From NCBI GenBank assembly GCA_045863335.1, contig BTVY01000037.1, positions 1 through 64,000 of the forward strand: DNA of 64,000 nt, written 5' to 3'. The notes below the pieces were generated by a model. That model was not told where the DNA came from and made no database searches. It saw nothing but the letters and a program-made list of their open reading frames with translations. The translations under genes and the position numbers were made by a program. The number at the start of each line of letters is the position of its first letter. The stretch's first letter is position 1. The stretch comes from Candidatus Hydrogenedentota bacterium. Lineage in GTDB: Bacteria; Hydrogenedentota; Hydrogenedentia; Hydrogenedentales; SLHB01. This document shows positions 3,173 through 24,084 of the stretch, in pieces.

Positions 3173-4714
3173 ATGCGCGTGCTTCTCATCAACGTCCCGC
3201 ACCCCGCCATCGGAAGTCGTATCCCGGACGATCATCTCCCTCCCCTCGGGCTCCTCTACATCGGCGGCGCGTTGATCGACGCCGGGCACGAGACGCGCCT
3301 CCTCGACGGCGAACTCGCCCCTTTGTCCACAAAACAGATCGTGGACACAACGCAGGCCTTCGCCCCTGACGCGGTCCTCTTCGGCCACTCGGGCTCGACC
3401 TCGGCCCACCCCATTGTCGCGGAGGTCAGCCGGGCGATTCGCGCCGCGTGCCCCGACCCATGGATCGTCTACGGAGGCGTCTTCCCTACGTACCATTGGC
3501 ACGACATCCTCCGGGACGAACCGCAGATCGACGTCATCGTCCGCGGCGAAGGCGAGCGAACGGCGCCACGCCTCATCGCGGCGCTCGAAACCGGCGCGCC
3601 GCTCCACGACATCCCCGGCATTGTGTACCGCGAGAATGACGAGCCCGTCGCCACGCCGGACGCGCCGCTCATCCAGAATCTCGACGACTATCGCGTCGGC
3701 TGGGAGCTGATCAATTTCGCGGACTACAGCTACTGGGGCGGACGCCGCGCCGTCGTGGTCCAGTTTTCGCGAGGCTGCCCTTATCAATGCAACTACTGCG
3801 GACAACAACTCTTCTGGCGGCGGTGGCGGCATCGCGATCCCAGGAAGTTCGCCGCGGAACTTGCCTGGCTGCACCGCGTCCACGGCGTCGACGTCATCAA
3901 CTTCGCCGACGAACACCCCGCCGCGTCCAAGCCCGCCTGGCGCGCCTTTCTCGAAGCCCTCATTGCGGAGAACGTCCCCTTGACCCTCGTCGGCTCGGTC
4001 CGGGCGGACAGCATCGTGCGAGATAAAGACTTCCTGCACCTGTACAAGAAGGCCGGCTTCGTCCGCTTTCTGCTCGGCATCGAGAACTACGACGAGGCGA
4101 CGTTGCGCCGAATCCGCAAGGCATCCACGGTGAGCGAAGACCGCGAAGCCATCCAGTTGCTCCGCCAACACGACATCATCTCCATGGCGACCTACGTGGT
4201 CGGCTTCGAAGAGGAACGCGACCGCGACTACTGGCGCTCTCTCCAGCACCTGCTCTCCTACGATCCCGACCAGATTCAATTGTTATACGTCACGCCCCAC
4301 CGTTGGACCGCCTACTACGAGGTCGCGGCAGCCCGGCGCGTCGTGCAAACCGACCGCCGGCGCTGGGACTACAAACACCAGGTGCTCGCCACGCGCCACC
4401 TGTCCCCCTGGCGCGTGCTCCTGTGGGTCAAGTTCATCGAGGCGGTCATGCAACTCCGCCCGCGCGCCCTCCGGCGGCTCTTCTTCCACCGCGACCCCGA
4501 ATTTCGCTACGCCATGCGCTGGTACTCCAACATCGGACGCCGCGTCTGGCCCTACGAAATCTGGAACTTCCTCTTCCGCGACCGCTACCAGAACAACGGC
4601 CCCACCCTCGCCCAATTCTGGGGTCCGCCCCAGGACGGCGAAGTATCGGCAAGGGAGCGCCCGATCCGAGCGCTTCTCCCGGTCGCAACGGACTCGTCAC
4701 CAGTGGTACGATGA
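3173..4714 (+). CDS. Cobalamin-binding radical SAM protein, BchE-like
   Basis: N-terminal B12-binding domain (PPLGLLYIG...YGGVFPT). CxxxCxxC motif in SRGCPYQCNYC. FADE and LLGIE motifs. AGGAGG RBS. Confidence 0.9.
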   Translation: MRVLLINVPHPAIGSRIPDDHLPPLGLLYIGGALIDAGHETRLLDGELAPLSTKQIVDTTQAFAPDAVLFGHSGSTSAHPIVAEVSRAIRAACPDPWIVYGGVFPTYHWHDILRDEPQIDVIVRGEGERTAPRLIAALETGAPLHDIPGIVYRENDEPVATPDAPLIQNLDDYRVGWELINFADYSYWGGRRAVVVQFSRGCPYQCNYCGQQLFWRRWRHRDPRKFAAELAWLHRVHGVDVINFADEHPAASKPAWRAFLEALIAENVPLTLVGSVRADSIVRDKDFLHLYKKAGFVRFLLGIENYDEATLRRIRKASTVSEDREAIQLLRQHDIISMATYVVGFEEERDRDYWRSLQHLLSYDPDQIQLLYVTPHRWTAYYEVAAARRVVQTDRRRWDYKHQVLATRHLSPWRVLLWVKFIEAVMQLRPRALRRLFFHRDPEFRYAMRWYSNIGRRVWPYEIWNFLFRDRYQNNGPTLAQFWGPPQDGEVSARERPIRALLPVATDSSPVVR

Positions 4715-4718
4715 GCGG

Positions 4719-5792
4719 ATGTTCACCGCAATCGGACGTTGGTATCGGAAGCGAGCGTATAGACCCGGGAGCGTGGTGTCGCGATTCGTTGCGCGCGATG
4801 TGAAGCGGGAGATCAGAGTCGTTTCCGCCGATGATCTCGATAAGGGATACATCGTTGGCCAGGTGCGAACGAATAATGTTTTGTATGTGGCCAGGGGCTT
4901 GGTTGCGGAACAGCAGTTCAGCGACCCTACGATTCTGCGCATAGATGAACTGTGGGATTGGTCCGGTAAGCCGTGGGGCGGCTTGCCCGATGGGACGTCT
5001 ATCGTGGATCGCGTAGACACGCGGCATAACGAGAATATACGCGTCGCCGATGGGGGCGATGCCGGCTTCCGCGACAGACTTCTTGAACATCAGAAGCCAA
5101 CACGGGAGTTGGTTCTATCACCGGGCGATCAGGGCTGCAAGCCGATCACCAAGATTTCGGGCGAGCCGTGGTGGCCGGCCAGGCTCCCAAGACCCACCTG
5201 CGGCCTCGGTCACACTATGTCATTTATGGCGCAGTTCCGCATCTCGGATGTTCCCGGATTCGAATCTGAGACCGATTCCCTGGTCTCGTTTCACTACTGC
5301 CAGTCGTGCTCCTACGAAGGCAATATGTCTTTCGGATGGGACTGCGAGCGGAACAAGTCCGGCTATGACGTATCCATTCTCACGAACATCACGACAAGAG
5401 AACCAGATGGACTCGAGACAGTTGCTGAGGTGGTCATCAAACCGCATGCCGTGACCTGTCGCGATGTCATGGAAGTCCCGGGATATGAAGACACGATCGA
5501 TCTGGTTCTTGACCAGCCGGATGATTACCCCGGGGGCAAAGACGACCTCGACGAGGAAATCTACCCCGGCGTGGTACACGTCGCGCACAGCAAACTGGGC
5601 GGTTGGCCCACATGGGTCCAACGGCCGGTCCCGCCCCCGGTCGGTGATTCGGAACGACTCGCGTTCGTCGCCCAACTCGACTGGTCATTGTGCGACCGCT
5701 CACCATGGTGCTCCGGGGGCTACGCATACCTATTCCTGATACACAACGGCACCAACATGCTTCGAGGAGAATTGGCAATACAGACAACGTGA
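4719..5792 (+). CDS. Hypothetical protein with YwqG/DUF1963-like C-terminal domain
   Basis: 357 aa. KISGEPWWP...MSFMAQF...FHYC and SKLGGWPTWVQ...FVAQLD...GGYAYLF...QTT patterns typical of DUF1963/YwqG. Confidence 0.65.
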   Translation: MFTAIGRWYRKRAYRPGSVVSRFVARDVKREIRVVSADDLDKGYIVGQVRTNNVLYVARGLVAEQQFSDPTILRIDELWDWSGKPWGGLPDGTSIVDRVDTRHNENIRVADGGDAGFRDRLLEHQKPTRELVLSPGDQGCKPITKISGEPWWPARLPRPTCGLGHTMSFMAQFRISDVPGFESETDSLVSFHYCQSCSYEGNMSFGWDCERNKSGYDVSILTNITTREPDGLETVAEVVIKPHAVTCRDVMEVPGYEDTIDLVLDQPDDYPGGKDDLDEEIYPGVVHVAHSKLGGWPTWVQRPVPPPVGDSERLAFVAQLDWSLCDRSPWCSGGYAYLFLIHNGTNMLRGELAIQTT

Positions 5793-6018
5793 GCGGAAAT
5801 GCTTGCGGCGGTCTCCGGATGGGGCGGCTCGAAAGTAGTCACGCCGTGGCTCCCTACACCTTCTCACATCAAGCCCTGGACGGGGCGAAAGAATCGGCTG
5901 GGCGGGCAAAGCCCCTCAGGCCCGAAGGCCCAAAAGGTTCGCGTATCAGGCCGTTCATGGGTATCATTGGGGCGGTACATGAAGGTGACCGTGACAAAGG
6001 TGAAATGGATGCTACGCA

Positions 6019-6153
6019 ATGAAACACCTCAAGCTCAAAACCAAGAAACTACCCATTCGAGCAGACGGAACTGGTCCGAAGATCCCGGACCCCTGTGAGG
6101 GGCTCAGCGGCAAAGCACTGAAGAAGTGCCGGAAGGAGAACCCGGATCTGTAG
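6019..6153 (+). CDS. Small 44-aa protein (not in the ORF track): MKHLKLKTKKLPIRADGTGPKIPDPCEGLSGKALKKCRKENPDL
   Basis: Translated by hand from ATG 6019 to TAG 6153. AAAGGTG upstream. N-terminus resembles the small ORF at 22408-22599. Confidence 0.55.
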   Translation: MKHLKLKTKKLPIRADGTGPKIPDPCEGLSGKALKKCRKENPDL

Positions 6154-6232
6154 TGCCGGAGATCACCCGGGGCGAAGGCCATAGCCCTATCGCACGGATC
6201 GCTCGTGGACGCGCTTGCATTCACGAAACCGA

Positions 6233-6322
6233 GATCGAAATCGCTATCGGGATCGGGATCGGGATCGGGATCAAAAAGAGAAACGCCCGGAGTTTCGATA
6301 CCGATCCCGATTTGGATCGGGA
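6233..6322. repeat. ATCGGG hexamer repeat with inverted partner
   Basis: GAAATCGCT(ATCGGG)4ATC followed by GATACCGATCCCGATTT, able to fold back. Confidence 0.7.
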
Positions 6323-6469
6323 CGTACCGCCGCTACGGATCCCAAACGACATGCGGGCGTGGGGGTGTCCGCTGTTTCTTGCGCGCCGTCCGCGACGTGA
6401 TGGGGGTGCGCCAATAACGCGCACCCGTCCCCAACACCCCGCACCGCCACGAAAACCCCGAACGCCAAA

Positions 6470-6528
6470 TTGTGTTGCAGGCTCCCAGCCTGCGAACGAA
6501 CGCGGCAGGCTGGAAGCCTGCACCACAA
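6470..6528. repeat. REP-like inverted doublet
   Basis: TTGTGTTGCAGGCTCCCAGCCTGC (6470-6493) and GCAGGCTGGAAGCCTGCACCACAA (6505-6528) form inverted arms. Confidence 0.8.
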
Positions 6529-6570
6529 TGCAAAACACTGTGCAAGATTTGTTGTCCGCATTCGCTCCCA

Positions 6571-7250
6571 TCTGACCCAACGGGCCTGCATACCTGCAAG
6601 CCCAGGCTTGGCCCAACCGGCGACACGCCGCGCCGAACCAATGCGCGCATCACGCAGCCCCGGACAGGGCGACTCGACTGTAGTCACGCCGCCGGCGTGA
6701 TGAAGCGAGGAACGAGCGAAACCCTAGGTTCTAACGCCCCTCAGGGCAAGCCCCGGATGGGGCGTAAGAAGTTAGAAGCGGCGGGGACGCCCGATCATCG
6801 CAGTCGCGTACGAGTCGACGTTTGCCGGCATGTTCTGCCGCCCCCGTTCGGGGGCTATGCGATAGGGACCGGTTCAGGTACCCAACGTTCCGCTCCGCTC
6901 CACGTTGGGCTACATTCTTCCGCCTCGTCCGAGGCTGGAAACTGTACGTCACCTTTCGGAACAATCGGGTTGCATCCAGCAAACGACTTGACCGCCGATC
7001 CCAATCCGGCCCAACAGGCCGTCTTCGGTCCAATCTGGCCCAACGGGCCTACATACTTACAGCCCAGGCTTGGCCCGGACGGCCGCACGGCGCGCCCGTG
7101 AAACGCACGCCACACGAATCCGGCCCAATGGGTCTCCGAATCGGTCAAATCTGGCCCAACGGGCCTACATACTTGCAGCCCAGGCTTGGCCCGGACGGCG
7201 GCGCCGAGCGCCCGCGCGACGCGCCAACGGCCGGGCCTAGCCTGGGTATC
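6571..7250. repeat. Nested non-autonomous palindromic elements (MITE/REPIN-like)
   Basis: Three copies of TCTG(G/A)CCCAACGGGCCT(A/G)CATAC...AGCCCAGGCTTGGCCC at about 6571, 7034 and 7150; the last two lie in a ~115-bp tandem duplication. An AGCCCCGGA.GGGGCG...CGCCCCCGTTCGGGGGCT element lies at about 6655-6935. Confidence 0.75.
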
Positions 7251-7688
7251 CGCAACCCCCATTCATCCCTACGCTGAAAGCGTTGCACAACGAACGCAGG
7301 AGTATGTACCCCTTGTATATTGTCCGCGAGGGAAATTTGGCGATACGCCAGTCGTCGCCGTATCCGTTTTTTGGTTTTTTTTCTTTTGTGAACGACTGTG
7401 GGGTTGTGGATAAGCGGTGCGTTCGGCTCATGGGATTCCTCTCGCAAGGCCATGTGGGAGGTTAGGACGGGCGGCGGAGCTGGGTAACCCCTTGGGCTGT
7501 CGCGAAGCCTGTCCTGAAGTTGATGGTCCGCAATTAGCCCAGCTATACTCGCACTATTACATATCTTTCGGACAATGAGTTCTTGAATTGACCTGTCGTA
7601 CAATTAAAGAAGCTCCGCCAAAGGTTTTTGAAAGAAATCAGCCTGCAAGCTATTTGGGAATTGGCTGGAAACGGGGTGCGATACAAAC

Positions 7689-9512
7689 ATGCACTTAAGC
7701 GAAATTCAACTTACTAATTTTCGTTCATTTTCGGAAGAACAGATATCGTTCCAGCGCCGCCTGACGGTGCTGGTTGGAGAGAACAATGGCGGCAAGAGCA
7801 ATATTATCGATGCCATCCGCCTTGTCTCAACACCCTTGAGCGGTCGCCGCGAACTATATTGTGAGCATACGGACATACGATTTGGAACGACCTCTCCCAC
7901 TTTCAGCATCCAAGCCGCATTTGATGAATTGTCGCCGCCCCAACAGGGCAGGCTCCTTTCCGCAACAACCGATGACACATTGAGCAGGGCCACCTTTGGT
8001 GTCACGTACGATGCTTCCGGAAGACGACCGCATGTGCGCCCGAACCTTTGGGCGGGCCGCTTCAAGGCACCGCCGGAACCTGGTGCGCATGAGATGATTC
8101 GCCACGTCTACCTGCCACCGCTACGCGATGCCAAACGCGCACTCGCGTCGGGCAATCCAACGCGGATTTATGCTCTCCTACATCACTTTCTCGGGAACCG
8201 AGATCCCGATGATATTGCTAGAGATCTTGCCCGTGAGAGCGAACATCAAATTCTCAAGGATGTAAACTTGGCTGTGGCTGGAGGTCTGGATGAACTGACC
8301 ACCGGCGTCAGGCAGCAAAACACGAGGTTAGGCTTCAATACCGATGAGAAACTCATCGATATCGCACGCGACTTGCGGTTCAAACTCGCCGATCATGGGA
8401 TCACGCCGGAAGACCTCCGTTATTCCGGTCATGGATTCGCCAATCTGCTCTACATCGCGACGATCGCTGTTGAATTGGAGAAAACGGACAACGCGGAACT
8501 TACCATGTTTCTCGTCGAGGAGCCGGAGGCTCACCTCCATCCGCAGCTTCAATCAGCGGTACTGAGTTTCCTTGAAGAGCGCGCTGGGCAATCTCCCAAG
8601 CAAAATGAAGATCAGAACGCCCCAGCGGGACATTTGCAGGTCATTGTTGCCACGCATTCACCGAACCTGTCCGCTTGGGTTCCGTGCGAAAACCTGGTAG
8701 TTGTCCGTTCCGTTGAGCCGAACGCTCGTTCAAGCAACGATCTGGGTGCAACGGAAGAGGAACAGTCCGATGGTTCGGATACGCGGCAGGCCTTGACGAG
8801 GCCGCGTCCAGAGTCTCGCTGTATACCTCTTTCTAAGCTTGGTTTGAGTGCCCTGGAACGCCGAAAGATTGACCGCTATCTCGATGTGACCAAATCAGCC
8901 GTGCTATTCGGCGGACGCGTTCTTTTAGTCGAAGGAATTGCCGAGGCGTTGTTACTTCCCATAATGGCAAAGTGTCATGTACTCAAGGAAGACCCGCAGG
9001 CCTTGCGCAAATTTCGCTCCACGGCCTTCGTCTACATCGATGGCGTGGACTTCGACCCGTACGTGAGGGCGTTGTTATCAACGGTCGGTGGCGTCCGCAT
9101 CGCCGACCGCCTAGTAATCATTACAGACGGGGACAAACATACTGTCAACGATGGACAACCTCTCCCCGGATTCAGTCGGAAGACAAAGCTGAAGAAGATC
9201 GCCGCCGACGCGGGCGCCCAGGATGTCCTCGATGTCTTGGTGAATACGTACTCACTCGAAACAGAGCTCATCGAAGCCGGCAACGAAGCTTGCCTCAGGG
9301 AAGTCTATCTCGCACTGCATGAGAAATCTGAGGAGAAGTGGGACATCGCTGTAGCAAAAACTGGTCGCGAACGCGCAATAGCTATACAAGGCTTGTTCCA
9401 CAACACGGCCAAAGGCGACTTCGCCCAACTCATCGCAGATAAGATAGCGGACAGCTCGACGTTTTTCGTACCCGAGTACATTCAGAAAGGCATCGAGGCG
9501 CTTGTGAAATGA
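7689..9512 (+). CDS. gajA: OLD-family ATP-dependent nuclease (ABC ATPase + TOPRIM), Gabija GajA-like
   Basis: Walker A GENNGGKS, Walker B/D-loop LVEEPEAHLHP, H-loop ATHS, TOPRIM motifs LVEGIAE and ITDGD, SLETEL. Directly coupled to a UvrD-like gene. Confidence 0.88.
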   Translation: MHLSEIQLTNFRSFSEEQISFQRRLTVLVGENNGGKSNIIDAIRLVSTPLSGRRELYCEHTDIRFGTTSPTFSIQAAFDELSPPQQGRLLSATTDDTLSRATFGVTYDASGRRPHVRPNLWAGRFKAPPEPGAHEMIRHVYLPPLRDAKRALASGNPTRIYALLHHFLGNRDPDDIARDLARESEHQILKDVNLAVAGGLDELTTGVRQQNTRLGFNTDEKLIDIARDLRFKLADHGITPEDLRYSGHGFANLLYIATIAVELEKTDNAELTMFLVEEPEAHLHPQLQSAVLSFLEERAGQSPKQNEDQNAPAGHLQVIVATHSPNLSAWVPCENLVVVRSVEPNARSSNDLGATEEEQSDGSDTRQALTRPRPESRCIPLSKLGLSALERRKIDRYLDVTKSAVLFGGRVLLVEGIAEALLLPIMAKCHVLKEDPQALRKFRSTAFVYIDGVDFDPYVRALLSTVGGVRIADRLVIITDGDKHTVNDGQPLPGFSRKTKLKKIAADAGAQDVLDVLVNTYSLETELIEAGNEACLREVYLALHEKSEEKWDIAVAKTGRERAIAIQGLFHNTAKGDFAQLIADKIADSSTFFVPEYIQKGIEALVK

Positions 9513-11254
9513 GTCCGCACGCGTTTCCTACACCGGAACAGCAAACCGTCATCGAACATGATGGCTCCGCTTTTGTAATGGCGTGTCCCGGTGCTGGCAA
9601 GACGCGGGTTATGGTCGAACGTGCGCGTCGCCTGTTCTCCGATTTACCAGCGGGTTGTGGGGTTGCGTTCTTGTCGTTCACACGTGCGGCGATTTCTGAG
9701 CTTGAGACGCGCCTTCGCAAGGAGCGGATCTTACCGTCGCCCGTCTTTCCAAGCTTTGTCGGAACATTCGATAGTTTCGTCTGGCAATTCCTTGTGGCGC
9801 CGTTTGGCGTCAAGGGCTCTGATGCCCGTCCGCGGTTGATTGCCGATGTGGCGGACCTTGCGGTAACGCCGCCTGGCTATACACACTCCTTGTCGCTTTC
9901 TTGTTTTTGTCGCATGACAGGAATAATCCTCGACAAAGCGGCGAAAGCCCGAGGGTTTGATGTTTCACAAAAACCCATCTACCAGGTTCAGGCTTATGTA
10001 ACAGCAGCTGCGGCACTCCGCGCAGGTTTGCGGGCGCGAGGCTACTTGGGCTTTGATGAAGCGCGTGGCGCGGCACTCGAACGGCTGAAAGATGCAGAAC
10101 AGGGGACCCGTATCGCCGCGGCCCTGGCCGGTCGATTTCGTGAAGTCATTGTTGATGAGGCGCAGGACTGCAATCCGGATGATCTTGAAGTCATTTCATC
10201 GTTTCGAAATTCGGGTCTCTCTGTGAAGGTTATATGCGATCCGCATCAATCTATTTATGGATTCAGAGGGGGGCTCACGGATCAACTTTTCGCGTACGCG
10301 GAAACCTTTCGCGAAGATGAACGTAAGGTGTTGACCGGAAATTTTCGGTCTTCGCCCAGTATCTGCAAAGCTACAGCACAGCTACGCCCTCTCGCGGTGC
10401 GCATCTTGCCTGACGAACCCCTCGGCCGTCACAAGGACGACACAACACCCGTTCGAATCTTCTCATATGGTGGCAATAAGGTACCGGATAAGATCGGCAC
10501 AGTATTCTTCTCATATGTGAAAAGCATGGGTCTCAATCCTGCATCGTGTCCAATCGTTGCCGCCACGAAAGCAAGCGGAGCGGCGGCGGCCGGGCAGCCG
10601 CGCCCAATCGACAGCAGCGTTCGAGCCGTTCGCCTCGCCGAAGCGGTGACAGGATTTCAATTCGCTGCCGGTTTCAATGACATGAAGAGATCGATCGAGC
10701 AGGCCCACATAGTTCTGCTTGAACTGGAGGACCGCCTTGGCAATTTTTCCTACCACCAGTATCTCGCGGAGAATGAGATCGAGCAGGCAAGCTGGCGCCC
10801 TCAGGTCCTTTTCCTGTTGCGTGAACTGCGTTTCGACCCATCAAGACATTCAAATGCCAAGGCCTGGCACACAGCAGCCAAAGACCTGCTAGCGGAACAT
10901 CTCACGCTGAAGAACGAACCTGGACTCTCTCAACGGTTCAAATGGAACAAGAATATCGCAGACGCACTGGTTCCGGTGCCATCTGCGACTGCAATGCCAC
11001 GCACCATACACTCGGTAAAGGGAATGGAGTTTCCGGCAGTTTGTGTCGTTACCACAGCGCGTACTCTCGGACGTATTCTTGACTACCTGGAAACAGGGGA
11101 ACCCGCTGATATGGCGGAGGACACTCGCAAGCTCTACGTAGCGGCTTCGCGGGCGGAAAGATTGCTGGTGATTGCAGCTCCGCGGAGTCAGGCGAACCGG
11201 CTAGCTGCACACTTGCGCGGCCACGGGGCCAAAGTGGAAATTGAGGACATTTAG
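9509..11254 (+). CDS. gajB: UvrD-like SF1 helicase, Gabija GajB-like
   Basis: Motifs ACPGAGKT, IVDEAQD, DPHQSIYGF, NFRS, TIHSVKGMEF, LYVAASRA. Compact (581 aa). ATGA overlap with gajA. Confidence 0.87.
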   Translation: MSPHAFPTPEQQTVIEHDGSAFVMACPGAGKTRVMVERARRLFSDLPAGCGVAFLSFTRAAISELETRLRKERILPSPVFPSFVGTFDSFVWQFLVAPFGVKGSDARPRLIADVADLAVTPPGYTHSLSLSCFCRMTGIILDKAAKARGFDVSQKPIYQVQAYVTAAAALRAGLRARGYLGFDEARGAALERLKDAEQGTRIAAALAGRFREVIVDEAQDCNPDDLEVISSFRNSGLSVKVICDPHQSIYGFRGGLTDQLFAYAETFREDERKVLTGNFRSSPSICKATAQLRPLAVRILPDEPLGRHKDDTTPVRIFSYGGNKVPDKIGTVFFSYVKSMGLNPASCPIVAATKASGAAAAGQPRPIDSSVRAVRLAEAVTGFQFAAGFNDMKRSIEQAHIVLLELEDRLGNFSYHQYLAENEIEQASWRPQVLFLLRELRFDPSRHSNAKAWHTAAKDLLAEHLTLKNEPGLSQRFKWNKNIADALVPVPSATAMPRTIHSVKGMEFPAVCVVTTARTLGRILDYLETGEPADMAEDTRKLYVAASRAERLLVIAAPRSQANRLAAHLRGHGAKVEIEDI

Positions 11255-18269: not shown

Positions 18270-19334
18270 CTAACTTGCAAACACGCGGATGTGGCGCGGG
18301 CGAACGTAAACGATGCTGCCCGTATTAAGAAGCATAGTGGCAAAACGCTCTTGGGAGACTTCCGCAGCGAGGTGCTGTCCATCGTCGGTGAGAAGTTCGA
18401 CGCGAACGAGCGGTCCGGCGGACTGGATGCGTGACACTTCGGCCTGCAACGACGGCATGCCCTTGGGTTGTGTGTCGATTGTCAGATCGTGAGGACGCAC
18501 GAAGACGCGCGCGTCGCCAAGTATCTGCTGGCGGTCTTCGGGATAAGGCAGTTGGAGCGACCCAAACTGAACCGTTCCCTCGTCCACCCGGCCGTGGAAG
18601 TCGTTGGTTTCCCCGAGAAACCGCATGACGAATTCGGTCGCCGGATGGTGAAATACCTCGTCCGGCGTGCCCACTTGCTCGATACGTCCCGCGTTCATCA
18701 CGACGATGCGGTCGGCGACTTCGAGCGCCTCATCCTGATCGTGAGTAACGAAGACGCTGGTAACATGAATCTCATCGTGAAGCCGGCGCAGCCACGCGCG
18801 GAGTTCCTTGCGCACCTTAGCGTCCAGCGCGCCAAAGGGTTCATCGAGAAGCAGAACCCTCGGCTCGACCGCCAGCGCGCGGGCGAGGGCGACCCGCTGG
18901 CGCTGTCCTCCGGACAACTGATGCGGGTAGCGCTTCGCAAGGCCTTCGAGCTGCACGAGGCGCAACAGGGTTTGGACGCGCTCGCGGATCTCGTCCCTGC
19001 GGGGACGGTTCCGTCGCGGCAAGACGCGAAGGCCGAAGGCGACATTCTCAAAAACGCTCATGTGCCGGAACAGAGCGTAGTGCTGAAAGACGAAACCCAC
19101 ACGGCGTCTTCCGACGGTCACCCGCGCGACGTCCTCCTCGTGGAACCGGATTTGGGTTCCGGGATCGGCGTCGGGGATTTCGAGTCCCGCGATGATGCGC
19201 AGCAGCGTGGTCTTGCCGGATCCCGACGGTCCAAGCAACGCGACCAACTCGCCTGCGCCCACCGTGAGCGATACGTTGTCAAGCGCCTTGAAGGCGCCAA
19301 AACTCTTCGATACATTCGTAACTTCGATACTCAT
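18270..19334 (-). CDS. cysA: Sulfate/thiosulfate ABC transporter ATP-binding protein
   Basis: [54 protein letters not shown]-terminal TOBE. Start MSIEV after GGAGGAG. Confidence 0.95.
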
Positions 19335-19362
19335 TCCATGTCTCCTCCCCGCGTGGGGTCGT

Positions 19363-20235
19363 TCATGCGGCGCTGGCTGCGTGGGCGCGCTTCTCGACAA
19401 TAGCTTTCAGGACCAGTGTCACCAGCGCCAATAGGGTGAGCAGCGAGGCCACGGCAAAGGCGGCCACGAAGTTGTATTCGTTGTAGAGAATCTCGACGTG
19501 CAGCGGCAGCGTGTTGGTCTTGCCACGGATATGTCCGGATACGACCGATACGGCGCCGAACTCGCCCATGGCGCGTGCGTTGCAAAGAATGACGCCGTAC
19601 AAGAGCGCCCATTTGACGTTTGGCAATGTAACCCGCCAGAAGGTCTGCCAACCCGACGCCCCCAAGGTGAGCGCCGCCTGCTCATCTTCCGTTCCTTGTT
19701 CCTGCATTAGCGGAATCAGTTCGCGCGCGACAAAGGGGAATGTGACGAAGATCGTCGCTAGTACGATACCCGGTACCGCGAAGATGATCTGGATGTCGCG
19801 GTCGGATAGCCACGGGCCGAGCCATCCTTGCAGTCCGAATAGCAGCACGTAAACGAGCCCGGAGATGACCGGCGACACCGCGAAGGGCAGATCGATAAGG
19901 GTGATGAGCACGCTCCGGCCGCGGAATTGAAATTTGGCCAGCGCCCAACTCGCGGCGAGCCCGAAGATCAGATTCAGCGGCACGGATATCCCCGCAACCA
20001 AGAGCGTTAGTTTGATCGCGGAGAACGCGGCGGGTTCCCGGAAGCTCTCGAAATACGCCTGGATACCTTTGCGAAGCGCCTCGGTAAACACGGCGAGCAG
20101 CGGCACCATGAGAAACGACGCGAGAAACAGGATAGCCAAGCCCGTAAGCGCCAGGCGCACCCACCAAGGCTCGCTGGTTGCGGCCTTAATGCGAGGCGCC
20201 GCGACGCCCATTGACGATGTAATCTGACCGGCCAC
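19363..20235 (-). CDS. cysW: Sulfate ABC transporter permease CysW
   Basis: [43 protein letters not shown] start overlaps the cysT stop. Confidence 0.95.
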
Positions 20236-21077
20236 TATGCGACCCCTCCCTGGTACCGGCGCACGCTCCACCACTGCAACAGGTTGATGAGAAGCAGTAG
20301 CGCGAACGAAGCCACCAGCATCACCGCTGCGATGGCCGTTGCCCCGGCGTAGTCATACTGTTCGAGCTTCGTGATGATCAGAAGGCTCGTAATCTCCGTG
20401 CGCATTGGCATGTTCCCGGAAATGAACACGACCGATCCGTACTCGCCGATGGCGCGCGCAAAAGCGAGCGCAAATCCCGTTAGTATCGGTGGCACTAGAG
20501 GCGGAAGCAGGACTCGCAAGAAGGTCTTCCACCGCGTGGCGCCCAAACTGGCTGCCGCTTCCTCGAGTTCCTTGTCGAGATCGGCGAGCGCGGGTTGTAG
20601 TGTCCGCACGACAAATGGCAGTCCGATGAACGTGAGGGCGATACAAATGCCAAGCGGACTGAATGCCGTCTTGATGCCCAGGGGTTCGAGATACTGGCCG
20701 ATCCAGCCGTTTTGCGAGTAGATGGTCGTGAGGGCAATGCCCGAAACCGCGGTTGGCAACGCGAAAGGGAGGTCCACCATCCCATCGATCACGCGCTTGC
20801 CCGGAAAGCGATAGCGCACGAGAACCCACGCGGTGATGAATCCAAATACGATGTTGACCGCCGCGGCCACGAAGGATGCGCCAAAGGTCAACTTGTAGGA
20901 GGCCACAACCCGCGGCGCGGTCACCGCCTGCCAAAACTCCGCCCACCCCATGGTCGCTGACTTTGCGAATAACGCCGCCAGCGGGATGAGCACGATGAGA
21001 CTCAGGTACACCACCGTGTATCCAAGGGTCAGACCGAAGCCCGGGAGTACGCTATGGGCCTTCCATCTTCCTGACAT
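20235..21077 (-). CDS. cysT: Sulfate ABC transporter permease CysT/CysU
   Basis: [56 protein letters not shown]. Confidence 0.95.
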
Positions 21078-21112
21078 TGTTGTGAAGACTCCTTTGTCCA
21101 AAGACTGTGAAT

Positions 21113-21190
21113 GCTGCCCCTCCTAGCTCCCCCCCCGTACACAGGGGGAGAATCTCGCCCCCTGGACGGGGAGGGTCAGGGTGGGGTCCA
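21113..21190. repeat. GC-rich palindromic intergenic repeat
   Basis: CCCCTCCTAGCTCCCCCCCCGTACACAGGGGGAG...CCCCCTGGACGGGGAGGGTCAGGGTGGGG nested hairpins between sbp and cysT. Confidence 0.55.
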
Positions 21191-21278
21191 CTATTTCATC
21201 GTCCTCAACTTGCTGACATTTGAAATACTCGAGCACGAACGCGAGTACGAATTTGATGGCTTGTGGAACTCAATCGGG

Positions 21279-22370
21279 TTAGCCGGCTGGGGCATAGATT
21301 TCGTCGAACACGCCGCCATCGTTGAAGTGCGTCTCCTGTGCGTTCTTCCACCCGCCGAAAACGTTATCGATGGTCACGAGTTCGACTTCGGGAAACCGGG
21401 CGAGATCCGCCGGATCTGCGCTTTCAGGATTCACCGGCCGGTAGAAGTGTTTTGCAGCCAGGCGCTGACCTTCGGGGGAGTACAGGTACTCGAGGTAGGC
21501 CTGGGCCACCTCAAGGGTGCCGTGCTTCTTGGCGTTTCGGTCAACTACGGTCACCGGCGGTTCGGCCAGAATGCTGAGGCTGGGCAGGATGATTTCAAAC
21601 TTGTCCGGCCCGAGTTCGTTCACGGCCAAGAACGCCTCGTTCTCCCAGGATAGGAACACGTCGCCAATCCCGCGCTGCACAAACGTTGTCGTGCTTCCTC
21701 GTGCGCCGGAATCCAACACGGGAACGTTCTTGAGCAACGCGGCGACAAAATCGCGGGCTTTCGCCTCTGCCTTCTTCACGTCCTCGCTGAATTGCGGGTC
21801 GTGGAGTTTCTCCAAGTCGCCCAGTTCCTGTTCTAAGACGTAGGCCCAAGCGGCCAGATAGTTCCACCGCGCCCCGCCCGAGGTCTTCGGGTTAGGCGTG
21901 ATCACTTCGATCCCCGGCTTAACCAGGTCGCTCCAATCCCTAATCCCTTTTGGATTGCCCTTTCGGACGAGAAACACGATCGTGCTGGTGTACGGGGCGC
22001 TGTTGTGCGGCAGCCGCGACTGCCAATCCTCGGGCAGCAACTTGGCTTTCTCCGCGATGGCGGATATGTCGTAGGCCAGCGCCAAGGTCACCACGTCTGC
22101 TTCCAAACCGTCGATTACCGCGCGCGCCTGCTTGCCCGCGCCCCCGTGAGACTGTTCGATGGTGACGTTCTGGCCCGTCTTCTCTTTCCAATACGAGGCG
22201 AAAGCCTTGTTGAAATCCACATAGAGTTCACGTGTGGGATCGTACGATACGTTTAAGAGTTGGATATCGGCCCCGTATGCGAACACTGTCGCCGCCACAA
22301 TGACAAGCACTGTCCCTCTCACTAATTCGCGCAGCCGGCCATGAATGGTTGGTAGAAATCGATTTGTCAT
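21279..22370 (-). CDS. sbp: Sulfate-binding periplasmic protein
   Basis: [59 protein letters not shown]. Confidence 0.96.
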
Positions 22371-22407: not shown

Positions 22408-22599
22408 TTACCCTTGTTTGTTTTCCTGAATGGCTTCCCAGGTGTTCAGGATGATGTTGTTGAACGTATTGAATGCCGTGCCGAAAGCGCCAAGTGCTGA
22501 TCCAAAAGCGCCGAGGATCACTCCCAATTGCTGTAGCTCGAGCAGTGAGACAGCAAACGCGGGACGGGTGGTCTTTGTGATCGGATTGATGTGCGACAT
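22408..22599 (-). CDS. Small 63-aa protein: basic N-terminal leader + Gly/Ala/Phe amphipathic helix
   Basis: GAAAGGA RBS. Fills the porin-sbp gap on the operon strand. N-terminus [16 protein letters not shown] resembles the ORF at 6019. Confidence 0.7.
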
Positions 22600-22638: not shown

Positions 22639-24084
22639 TCAGAATTCGAACTGAAACCGTGTTTGAAATAGATCGAAGTTGCCGTCGTACCGGACGTGGT
22701 CGACTTGGTTGTGGATGTAATTCCACGTGATGCGGACGTTGGGATTGAGGTACCAGTTCAGGCCGAGCGTAATGGAGTCTTGTTCGCCACCCCAGATGGG
22801 ACGATCCGACAGGTCCACGCTGGAATAGCGCGCCGTAACTTCCCACGCGCCCCAGCCGTCCCGCATCTTCCAGTTGAAATTACGCTCGGGAATCACGCGA
22901 TCGAACGATCCCCGGTCGTTGCGGTACGGGCGGTTCTCCCCGGTGAGAAAGTAACTCGCTTGAACGTAATACCCGTCAAACGCGAGATCGCCGCCGAATG
23001 TGGTCTCAACATCGGAGCGAATGTATTCGCCTTGTAGCGAGAACGGTCCGAGTACCGTTGCTGCTTCCAGGCCCAGCAGGTCTACGTCATCCGCGCGGGC
23101 GTCCCGAAGCCGGAATGACTGAGGCAGGTTGTCGGGGTCGATGTAGCGAAACTGGGCCAGCCGCGATTCGGGACGAACTCCGTAGTTCACGCGCGCGCCG
23201 TCCGGATTCCGGAGACTGTACGCCACGCCCAGGTGCAGCAACTTTCTGCCATCATCCGAATACCATGGAAGCCCTGTGACTCGGCCGGTAATCTGATAGC
23301 CCTGGTCCTCGTCGGAGTCGTTTCCACTCGGCCAATCGTCTGTATCCTTGAATGCGCCTACGGCCCATGTCAGCCGCTCTTTCTTCGGCTCCCCCAAAAG
23401 AGCGTCACTGAGTTGAAGGCCCGCATTTCGCGATGGCACGAAGACATTCGCCAGCGAACGCTCGACAAAGGTCCGGTAGGGAATGGGCGTCAACTCCTCC
23501 AGACTGAACGGCTCTCGGTAATGGCCAGCGCGGAAGCTCATCTCGCGGCCTCCTCCGTATGGGATCGCCGTGTATTCCAGGTAGACGTCGCGAAACTTCG
23601 GCGTGTCCTCGCCGCTTTCCCCGGCAAAGTCGTATTCAGTCAGAAAATTGAAATCGTCGTACAGTTTTCCCTGCAGCCGAATCCGGGCAAATCGGAAGCC
23701 GGTGCCGTCTTGCTCATCACCGACAGCACGTACAAGTTCATCATCCTGATCGAACCACGCGATGTCGTAGCCCGCGCGGGCGCGGACCCGGAGTTGGAAC
23801 GCGCCGTCAGCCGAACCGATGGCAAGACCATCGGAATCGACCTTGATCTTGGGAAGCTGCTTCGCCTTTTCTGCCTCCGTCTTCTTATCCTCCTCCAATT
23901 GGACTTCAAGCTGCCTCAACTGTTTGTTCAATTCGTAAACCTGCTGTCGCAGCGACTCGACCTGCGCCGCCGAAGCGGGCACGTCTAGCGCCCCGGTATC
24001 GTTCTGAGTCTCTTGGCCCCGGACCGGGCCAGTTGCAAGCACTCCTATAGCCCCTGCGATCCAGATATGCTTCCAGGTCTCCAT
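22639..24084 (-). CDS. OprO/OprP-family anion-selective porin (probable sulfate porin)
   Basis: Signal peptide, coiled coil, FRFARIRLQG, EPFSLEEL, GAWEVTARYS, TLGLNWYLNPN, C-terminal Phe. Confidence 0.9.
   Translation of the reverse strand: METWKHIWIAGAIGVLATGPVRGQETQNDTGALDVPASAAQVESLRQQVYELNKQLRQLEVQLEEDKKTEAEKAKQLPKIKVDSDGLAIGSADGAFQLRVRARAGYDIAWFDQDDELVRAVGDEQDGTGFRFARIRLQGKLYDDFNFLTEYDFAGESGEDTPKFRDVYLEYTAIPYGGGREMSFRAGHYREPFSLEELTPIPYRTFVERSLANVFVPSRNAGLQLSDALLGEPKKERLTWAVGAFKDTDDWPSGNDSDEDQGYQITGRVTGLPWYSDDGRKLLHLGVAYSLRNPDGARVNYGVRPESRLAQFRYIDPDNLPQSFRLRDARADDVDLLGLEAATVLGPFSLQGEYIRSDVETTFGGDLAFDGYYVQASYFLTGENRPYRNDRGSFDRVIPERNFNWKMRDGWGAWEVTARYSSVDLSDRPIWGGEQDSITLGLNWYLNPNVRITWNYIHNQVDHVRYDGNFDLFQTRFQFEF

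Follow-up and report, generated by a model that had tools for sequence, protein, structure and literature searches.

Sequence comparison indicates that two short open reading frames (ORFs) in a 64,000-nucleotide (nt) stretch of a Candidatus Hydrogenedentota genome, one encoding 44 amino acids (aa) from position 6019 and the other encoding 63 aa at 22408–22599, are real small genes of a single family under selection. The whole stretch, hereafter the window, represents contig C37 of a 6.75-Mb genome (60% G+C, 105 contigs), all of which was scanned for related genes. The family is specific to the phylum Hydrogenedentota and has not been described previously. Its members share a short N-terminal leader in front of unrelated cores, and they are probably precursors resembling those of peptides made on ribosomes and then modified post-translationally (RiPPs), in which the leader acts as a tag read by a ~640-aa protein, the window's genus having about 20 dispersed copies. 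An earlier note, made from the letters of the window alone, had proposed a dispersed, lineage-specific peptide family on the basis of these two ORFs, the first of which is smaller than the length cut-off of the ORF track that the note mentions. Its interpretation is supported by the analyses described below.

A family of small genes with a common leader

Both ORFs have the motif that the earlier note had read in them: they start M-x-H, carry [ST]K at residues 8–9 followed by P-x-x-A, and are unrelated beyond the Ala. The strand had been left unstated, and the second ORF lies on the minus strand. The regular expression offered in that note matched 16 of 233,681 small-ORF starts in the genome, compared with 3, 8, 7, and 0 matches in four simulated second-order Markov genomes, and the real matches mostly resembled one another far beyond what the expression requires. 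A tighter motif covering the first nine residues gave 18 matches in the real genome, none in the reversed genome, and 0–3 (mean 1.1) in ten third-order Markov genomes. When combined with P..A, the tighter motif was found in 20 real small ORFs and was absent from the reversed genome and from each of the ten third-order Markov genomes, so that the comparison with simulated sequence suggested at the outset came out clearly in favor of enrichment.

Every stop-to-stop frame of the genome was searched with a hidden Markov model (HMM) of the leader, which recovered about 21 family members at 14 loci. All are in frames of 36–107 codons, and none is the beginning of a long protein. M1, H3, P12, and A15 are invariant among 22 paralogues. 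Both M1 and H3 remain invariant in a wider set of 66 non-identical sequences drawn from many genera, of which K2 is present in 62, the Pro in 63, and the Ala in 62, and the residue at −3 from the boundary, next to the Pro at −4, is small or aliphatic in 59. Conservation ends exactly at the Ala; nothing beyond it is conserved among the 66 sequences, and the cores form unrelated subfamilies. The resulting consensus, 13–18 residues long, is M-[K/S]-H-[VIL]-x-x-[VLI]-[ST]-[KR]-x(1-5)-P-[small or aliphatic]-x-A.

Several features of these sequences are those of translated genes. The conserved leader residues are encoded by synonymous codons, and the ratio of non-synonymous to synonymous substitution rates (dN/dS) is 0.07–0.31 across the tested family pairs, which amounts to coding-type conservation among homologues. 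A strong ribosome-binding site, AGGAG or GGAGG at 5–10 nt upstream of the start, precedes most of the 21 members besides the 44-aa gene, and orthologs of several members in public collections retain the core and vary in the leader spacer. K-mers upstream of 22 genes made no case for a shared promoter: the best uncorrected p-values were ∼1e-4 to 1e-5, with thousands of k-mers compared.

Small size, a conserved leader, and a core that varies are features that the members share with RiPP precursors. The leaders are basic and have a grand average of hydropathy (GRAVY) of −1.36 to +0.37. They contain no hydrophobic stretch that could serve as a Sec h-region, which takes about 10–15 residues, and satisfy just the c-region-like A-x-A rule; the leader alignment has neither the RR pair of a Tat signal nor the boundary Cys of a lipoprotein signal; and, ending in P-x-x-A, the leaders show no Gly-Gly or Gly-Ala site and no LSxxELxxIxGG pattern. 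Being basic and non-hydrophobic, the leader is thus no signal of the Sec, Tat, lipoprotein, or double-Gly kind, in agreement with what had been proposed from two sequences. The core types comprise Gly-zipper helices, Trp-rich sequences, Lys/Pro-rich cationic sequences, and C-x10-C loops (5 of the 22 paralogues), and tandem arrays of leader peptides are common. One such array, on contig C1 (L001:11523-12025), contains three peptides whose 15–16-residue cores are Lys/Pro/Val repeats with charges of +3 to +5; public metagenomes contain relatives of these peptides, as do other genera (L127).

The 44-aa gene

The 44-aa ORF matches the leader model with an E-value of 2.9e-9. Its ortholog in the same-genus genome G005 is 98% identical and differs at five codons, four of them synonymous and one non-synonymous, compared with 89% identity over 682 nt of flanking sequence; dN/dS against three relatives is 0.14, 0.08, and 0.31. 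The gene belongs to a subfamily of 12 members, including a paralogue on contig C14 and ten other relatives, across which P25, C26, G28, L29, G31, and C37 are invariant. Because both cysteines are invariant in all 12 members, the C-x10-C pair to which the earlier note had drawn attention (Cys26 and Cys37) is a conserved feature of this core, and it may form a disulfide loop.

One RNA-seq library yielded contigs spanning positions 5936–6168, with 13 differences from the window in 179 nt. Contigs from the same library also cover 4000–7339, non-coding repeats included, at like depth; covering the ORF and its non-coding flanks alike, they are evidence for neither transcription of the gene nor its absence. 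A scan for terminators and promoters around the ORF found nothing exceeding shuffled sequence, and the protein atlas gave no usable look-alikes for either the 44-aa or the 63-aa window peptide.

Distribution of the family

By the relatives of its GyrA, the genome of the window is a Candidatus Hydrogenedentota (Hydrogenedentales) MAG, in agreement with the phylum named in the earlier note. The family model matched 33 of 41 related genomes, including all 24 within the same family, with 7–24 matches per genome in the window's genus. A 20-position leader model matched 69 of 135 genomes of the phylum (E ≤ 0.001) and none of five outgroup genomes (E ≤ 0.1). The leader extends to the deepest branch sampled (G041). 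Together with the 14 loci in this genome, these counts bear out the proposal of a dispersed and lineage-specific family. Among 1.84 billion representative proteins, 19 matched the leader at E ≤ 0.001, all of them 30–69 aa long; the named database matches are annotated “hypothetical protein,” and the four organism names among them are Candidatus Hydrogenedentes or Hydrogenedentota. Pfam and NCBIfam contain no family to which a member could be matched, and the literature linking the phylum with leader peptides, bacteriocins, or RiPPs, judged by titles and abstract openings, contained nothing on the family.

A conserved cluster beside leader peptides

Neighboring ORFs were compared by all-against-all BLAST at 34 loci, of which this genome supplied 12 and related genomes 20, the other two being pieces of the window. 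Most neighbors were unrelated or belonged to abundant families (sulfatases, GFO/IDH oxidoreductases), and three contexts recurred: a module with an extracytoplasmic function (ECF) sigma factor, a gene cluster of the type found on contig C15, and a porin/binding-protein setting.

The cluster, which occurs at the peptides on contig C15 and in three other genera, consists of one to six leader peptides followed by one or two GNATs, a CPBP/Rce1-like protease, an ABC ATPase, an ABC-2 permease, and the ~640-aa protein. The GNATs are annotated as Acetyltransf_3 and the ATPase as DrrA-like, and GNAT domains number three per cluster. We compared 20 further loci, 18 of them from genomes negative for the leader model, and found all six cluster genes in order at 18 of the 20. 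One to six peptides starting M[KR]H lie directly upstream on the same strand at 17 of these loci, or at 21 of 24 when the first four (all with such peptides) are included. Since 15 of the 18 leader-model-negative genomes nonetheless carry M[KR]H peptides at the cluster, the leader model undercounts the family.

The ~640-aa protein is encoded by 123 of the 135 genomes of the phylum and by 83 of the 86 high-quality ones, with one match in most. All 69 leader-positive genomes have it, and none of the 12 genomes without it has a leader match (Fisher p 1e-4, not corrected for relatedness). Four SPASM matches are present in the genome of the window, and the one on C15 alone is near leader peptides.

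In the second recurring context, seen at nine loci, an ECF sigma factor is followed by a ∼520–590-aa anti-sigma-like protein and then by two or three leader peptides, either rich in Trp or with an acidic D-P-x-D motif at the end. An example is on contig C22 (L002:12542-15757), and eight more loci are in other genera. The anti-sigma-like protein has weak TPR matches, and the acidic D-P-x-D end of the Trp-rich peptide resembles a calcium-binding loop.

The third context is that of the 63-aa gene, which has a Porin_O_P porin on one side and, on the other, the sulfate-binding protein of a CysTWA-type transporter. All six genomes (four genera) in which the 63-aa peptide was found, among 54 searched, have porin, peptide, and binding protein in this order. 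The gene has a dN/dS of 0.07 against genome G002, and residue 2 of its orthologs is K, S, T, or N, with His3 constant. There are hints here that leader-bearing genes beside a porin and a binding protein encode a small accessory subunit of anion uptake. At a locus from another genus (L142:7821-10511), a different leader peptide lies between a porin and a phosphate-type binding protein.

A C39 peptidase-ABC exporter was considered as the processing system and rejected: none was found in the genome, where C39 domains sit in giant ORFs alone. These are three ORFs of 1618–2243 aa (C4:70379-76942, C61:14936-21664, and C88:3534-8387), which are not ABC exporters and have the domain 430–590 residues from the start. 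Four loci in the genome have S26 signal-peptidase domains, and the copy numbers of signal peptidases and CPBP proteins do not discriminate between the readings weighed below.

A CteB-like protein without radical-SAM cysteines

The ~640-aa protein, which is the hub of the cluster, is annotated at present as “SPASM domain-containing protein.” By sequence and predicted structure, it is a degenerate homologue of the SCIFF/ranthipeptide maturase CteB that retains a RiPP recognition element (RRE) and a SPASM domain, lacks the radical-SAM cysteines, and ends in a C-terminal GNAT domain. It aligns with CteB (PDB 5wgg) at E 8.7e-19 over residues 7–431, the CteB N-terminal domain included. The nearest NCBIfam models are the radical SAM/SPASM maturases of SCIFF, ranthipeptides, and Nif11 peptides (E 1e-17 to 1e-22), and the SPASM domain model TIGR04085 alone scores above its cut-off (36.4 bits vs. 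27). An AlphaFold2 model with a predicted local distance difference test score (pLDDT) of 81.9 places a barrel, a SPASM region, and a GNAT after the N-terminus, where residues 8–73 form three strands and then three helices (pLDDT 84–91). Foldseek ranked CteB first (E 1e-16, template modeling score 0.69), followed by SpeG, RimL, and RimJ for the C-terminus. The N-terminal recognition element is thus supported by the CteB alignment, the predicted fold, and the Foldseek rank, and the SPASM domain by the invariance of C394, C397, C403, and C426.

These four are among seven cysteines conserved in 26 orthologs. The remaining three, C24, C26, and C29, belong to the N-terminal domain, where they lie within an invariant D-P-E-x-C-F-C-x-E-C-D in the hairpin of strands 2 and 3. 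Their C-x-C-x2-C arrangement may represent a relocated or new metal site, and one may speculate that His3 of the leader and the hairpin cysteines form a shared one through which recognition runs. For the known pair, the review PMC8326336 states that the RRE of CteB binds the CteA leader, as a beta-strand, between its helix 3 and its strand 3.

The protein has 302 database relatives; in the best 120 of them, the named ones are Hydrogenedentes, with one record labeled otherwise. A literature search found no described counterpart of a GNAT fused to a CteB-like scaffold, and we know of none. The earlier note had expected a dedicated peptidase or export system to be encoded elsewhere in the genome, and contig C15 supplies candidates for both in the CPBP protease and the ABC-2 exporter, together with the RRE-bearing CteB-like protein. 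The co-occurrence of the leader with such genes, which the note had proposed to look for, is seen at the 21 of 24 clusters that have peptides beside them.

Proposed pathway and competing explanations

In the pathway that we favor, the N-terminal recognition domain of the ~640-aa protein would bind the leader, the GNAT domains would acetylate the peptide, and the CPBP protease would cut the leader off after the Ala, at a site defined by Pro at −4, a small residue at −3, and Ala at −1. The ABC-2 transporter would serve for product export or producer protection. For the ∼20 scattered genes of the window's genus, both window genes included, the cluster on C15 would act in trans.

Several observations weigh against this pathway. 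The window genes on C37 and the cluster on C15 are not adjacent, and for the window peptides action in trans is something that we purely infer. In all 26 orthologs of the ~640-aa protein the radical-SAM motif CX3CX2C is absent, with no Cys at the position aligned with that of CteB; the Pfam Radical_SAM domain was not found in the protein, which, the SPASM model aside, scores far under the cut-offs of all NCBIfam maturase models and may carry out no peptide modification at all. Three of the 24 clusters lack an adjacent leader peptide, with no small ORF of the M.H type at that place. The genomes without the protein, 12 in all, come from three families (9, 2, and 1 genomes), so that the co-occurrence reflects few independent events. 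The ribosome-binding site of the 44-aa gene is weakened, reading GGATG where the ortholog in G005 has GGAGG. Finally, the contexts of the dispersed members are varied, which fits a general targeting tag as well as a RiPP leader.

The variety of contexts, with members in ECF modules and anion-uptake operons, also implies that the tag marks more than antibiotic-like peptides, and it keeps alive both a leader used for secretion only and an N-terminus that is never cleaved. A broader version of our preferred pathway, which we offer tentatively and consider unlikely as a whole, is that the M-K-H tag addresses small peptides to a maturation and export pathway that spans the phylum, usually in a single copy. 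Its hub would be a former radical-SAM enzyme turned leader-binding scaffold and acetyltransferase, and its clients would include conserved small subunits of sulfate and phosphate uptake operons and ECF-linked peptides. If this were true, small proteins of one phylum would have in the M-K-H pathway a general route of their own that depends on a leader and runs parallel to Sec and Tat.

The strongest competitor, to which we likewise give a low probability, is that the leader is a bacteriocin- or pheromone-type export tag, functionally equivalent to a double-glycine leader, and that no post-translational chemistry is involved. The tag would then be read by the CPBP and ABC-2 proteins or by another system, and the CteB-like protein would be irrelevant to the dispersed members. 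A basic, non-hydrophobic leader of 13–18 residues with a sharp boundary at the Ala suits such a role, as do the frequent tandem arrays, the cores resembling unmodified class II bacteriocins or antimicrobial peptides, the CPBP and ABC-2 genes within the conserved cluster, and the loss of the radical-SAM cysteines from the CteB-like protein. On the other hand, three GNAT domains and a maturase homologue with an RRE belong to the sole neighbor set found phylum-wide, which is conserved in order, and the genome has no peptidase-containing ABC exporter that was found, its C39 domains being limited to the giant ORFs described above. The ABC genes of the cluster are moreover of the DrrA/ABC-2 type, and transporters of this type serve for immunity more often than for precursor secretion in known systems.

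It is more doubtful still that the motif is an uncleaved N-terminus of mature small proteins whose genes are unrelated, serving, for instance, as a free Met-Lys-His copper/nickel-binding (ATCUN-type) site or as a positively charged cytoplasmic anchor before a membrane helix. ATCUN motifs are defined by a free amino terminus whose third residue is His, and His3 is invariant in all 66 sequences; several cores have one hydrophobic helix behind the basic start, and a place in conserved uptake operons (in six of six genomes for the 63-aa peptide, and in a phosphate version too) would suit a structural subunit. An ATCUN site needs only three residues, however, whereas conservation reaches through [VIL]4, [VLI]7, [ST]8, [KR]9, and a variable spacer to P-x-x-A, and the small residues at −3 and −1 are an ending that protease sites typically have. 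A helix is missing from many cores, which are soluble, cationic, or Cys-looped, and it would be left unexplained why the motif is tightly linked to a protein with a recognition domain, to a protease, and to an exporter.

Cleavage by signal peptidase I at a P-A-x-A site of an atypical Sec signal is very improbable. The −3/−1 pattern does match the c-region rule of Sec signals (Ala at −1 in 62, a small or aliphatic residue at −3 in 59, and Pro at −4 in 63 of the 66 sequences), and the genome has its four S26 loci. An h-region is nevertheless missing from leaders of this length and hydropathy, and ordinary Sec signals are present in the same genome, for example on the porin neighboring the 63-aa gene. 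That the 44-aa ORF is a mere chance open frame in a repeat-rich intergenic region is hardly credible: it does lie in a 1.9-kb stretch without long ORFs that has dispersed repeats throughout, its ribosome-binding site is weak, and contigs of the RNA library extend over its flanks to the same degree as over the ORF itself, but the match to the leader model, the core motif invariant in twelve subfamily members, the four synonymous changes out of five beside flanks that are only 89% identical, and the dN/dS of 0.08–0.31 form a conservation pattern that contradicts it.

Comparison with known peptide systems

The pathway proposed here resembles the SCIFF/ranthipeptide systems, in which CteA or Tte1186a is paired with CteB or Tte1186. 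The ~640-aa protein is nearest to CteB in sequence and fold and to the SCIFF-maturase models of NCBIfam, it keeps the recognition and SPASM domains, and in both cases the precursors are small and have a short leader of ∼15–18 residues. SCIFF precursors may start with a similar N-terminal motif. Residues 1–21 of CteA comprise the leader and three core residues, as given in PMC8326336. Unlike its SCIFF counterparts, the hub protein has no CX3CX2C in any of the 26 orthologs and ends in a GNAT, and it scores far under the family cut-offs. None of the 22 peptides matches TIGR03973 or another NCBIfam model at E ≤ 10, nor did a set of seven at E ≤ 1; the TIGR03973 precursor has six Cys in 45 residues, whereas these peptides mostly have none or two; and the host belongs to Hydrogenedentota rather than Clostridia. 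Because the precursor model is unmatched, the radical-SAM site is absent, and the family cut-offs are missed, we do not regard the peptides as members of the SCIFF family, while the hub of the cluster appears to descend from SCIFF-type maturases.

Prochlorosins and the Nif11 and nitrile hydratase leader peptides (NHLP) offer a parallel in organization: many scattered precursors with a conserved leader and hypervariable cores, expanded within a lineage, and processing genes at one locus. In these systems one maturase serves many dispersed precursors. Their leaders are 60–80 residues long, are homologues of Nif11 or nitrile hydratase, and end in Gly-Gly, and the enzymes involved are LanM or cyclodehydratases together with a C39-ABC exporter. 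The Hydrogenedentota leader, by contrast, has 13–18 residues with P-x-x-A at the end, and the search for a C39 exporter gave none.

With double-glycine bacteriocins and microcins the family shares a short non-hydrophobic leader, small variable cores, and tandem genes, and the neighboring CPBP and ABC genes are of the kind that accompany class II bacteriocins. It differs in having no Gly-Gly or Gly-Ala site and no peptidase-containing ATP-binding cassette transporter, with candidate cleavage at an Ala that has Pro at −4. The sporulation killing factor (skf) operon and the AgrD/MroQ system likewise place a CPBP/Rce1-like protease, an ABC ATPase, a permease, and a SPASM-type protein beside a small precursor, and the CPBP members skfC and MroQ are implicated in leader removal. 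Their precursors are unrelated in sequence to those described here, where the SPASM protein has a GNAT and no radical-SAM site and the phylum is of the Gram-negative type. The three GNAT domains per cluster recall the tailoring enzymes of microviridin (MdnD) and goadsporin (GodH) and Rim-type N-terminal acetyltransferases; the fused GNAT is structurally nearest to SpeG, RimL, and RimJ, and the free ones are Acetyltransf_3.

Significance

To our knowledge the Hydrogenedentota are uncultured and their peptide chemistry is almost unexplored, and the present work gives the phylum a defined, searchable precursor family and a probable processing locus. New here are the cluster and, beside leader peptides, the degenerate CteB-GNAT protein. 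The latter would be a natural case in which a RiPP maturase of the radical-SAM type lost the radical site, retained the recognition and SPASM domains, and gained a GNAT, which bears on the evolution of RiPP enzymes. With 13–18 residues, an invariant His, and a sharp boundary at the Ala, the leader would be a compact tag for leader-guided peptide engineering. Tagged peptides in anion-uptake operons and ECF-sigma modules suggest leader-guided processing outside antibiosis, and the family as a whole illustrates that entire families can hide in ORFs below the length limits of gene callers.

The window genes and their surroundings

Coordinates of the two genes, of their neighbors in the window, and of the ~640-aa protein are collected in Table 1.

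Table 1. Positions of the leader-peptide genes, neighboring window genes, and the cluster hub (window coordinates unless a locus is named).
Feature	Position	Strand	Details
Precursor-type small gene, 44 aa	6019..6153	+	ATG start; stop 6151-6153; MKHLKLKTKKLPIRADGTGPKIPDPCEGLSGKALKKCRKENPDL
Proposed leader of 44-aa peptide	residues 1-15, nt 6019-6063	+	MKHLKLKTKKLPIRA
Proposed core of 44-aa peptide	residues 16-44, nt 6064-6150	+	Cys26 6094-6096; Cys37 6127-6129
Weak ribosome-binding site GGATG	6007..6011	+	7 nt 5′ of the ATG of the 44-aa gene
Second family member, 63 aa	22408..22599	-	leader-model E 1.3e-6
Proposed leader of 63-aa peptide	residues 1-16, nt 22599-22552	-	
Proposed core of 63-aa peptide	nt 22551-22411	-	hydrophobic, Gly-rich helix
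Phosphate-selective-type porin (Porin_O_P)	22639..24084	-	Pfam PF07396, E 3e-55; directly upstream of 63-aa gene
Sulfate-type ABC uptake genes	18273..22370	-	Pfam; directly downstream of 63-aa gene
Binding protein	21279-22370	-	SBP_bac_11
Two permeases	20238-21101, 19366-20274	-	BPD_transp_1 (twice)
CysA-like ATPase	18273-19400	-	ABC_tran + CysA_C_terminal
B12/radical SAM gene, BchE-type cyclase	3173-4714	+	TIGR02026, 536 bits, above cut-off
DUF1963 protein	4719-5792	+	directly 3′ of BchE-type cyclase gene
~640-aa protein of contig C15	L004:1311-3233		25 orthologs compared

The B12/radical SAM gene upstream of the 44-aa gene was considered as a maturase and rejected, since it scores above the equivalog cut-off as a BchE-type cyclase; such a gene lies beside only one other compared locus (L130). 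The lineage is not known to be phototrophic. The flanks around the DUF1963 gene that follows are 1171 nt apart in the window vs. 966 nt in the same-genus genome G005.

The 44-aa gene itself is held in a repeat-built stretch of 1.9 kb without long ORFs (5793–7688). This stretch includes a (GATCGG)n hairpin at 6241–6322 with 117 matches on 36 contigs, a hairpin with 25-nt arms at 6469–6529 with 38 matches on 21 contigs, and three copies of a unit of ∼100 nt (6556–6659, 7019–7121, and 7135–7237). Directly 3′ of it, a complete Gabija anti-phage system occupies 7689–11251 on the plus strand, with GajA of 607 aa (a full-length PADLOC match, E 4e-285) and, after a 4-nt overlap, GajB of 581 aa (E 5e-231).

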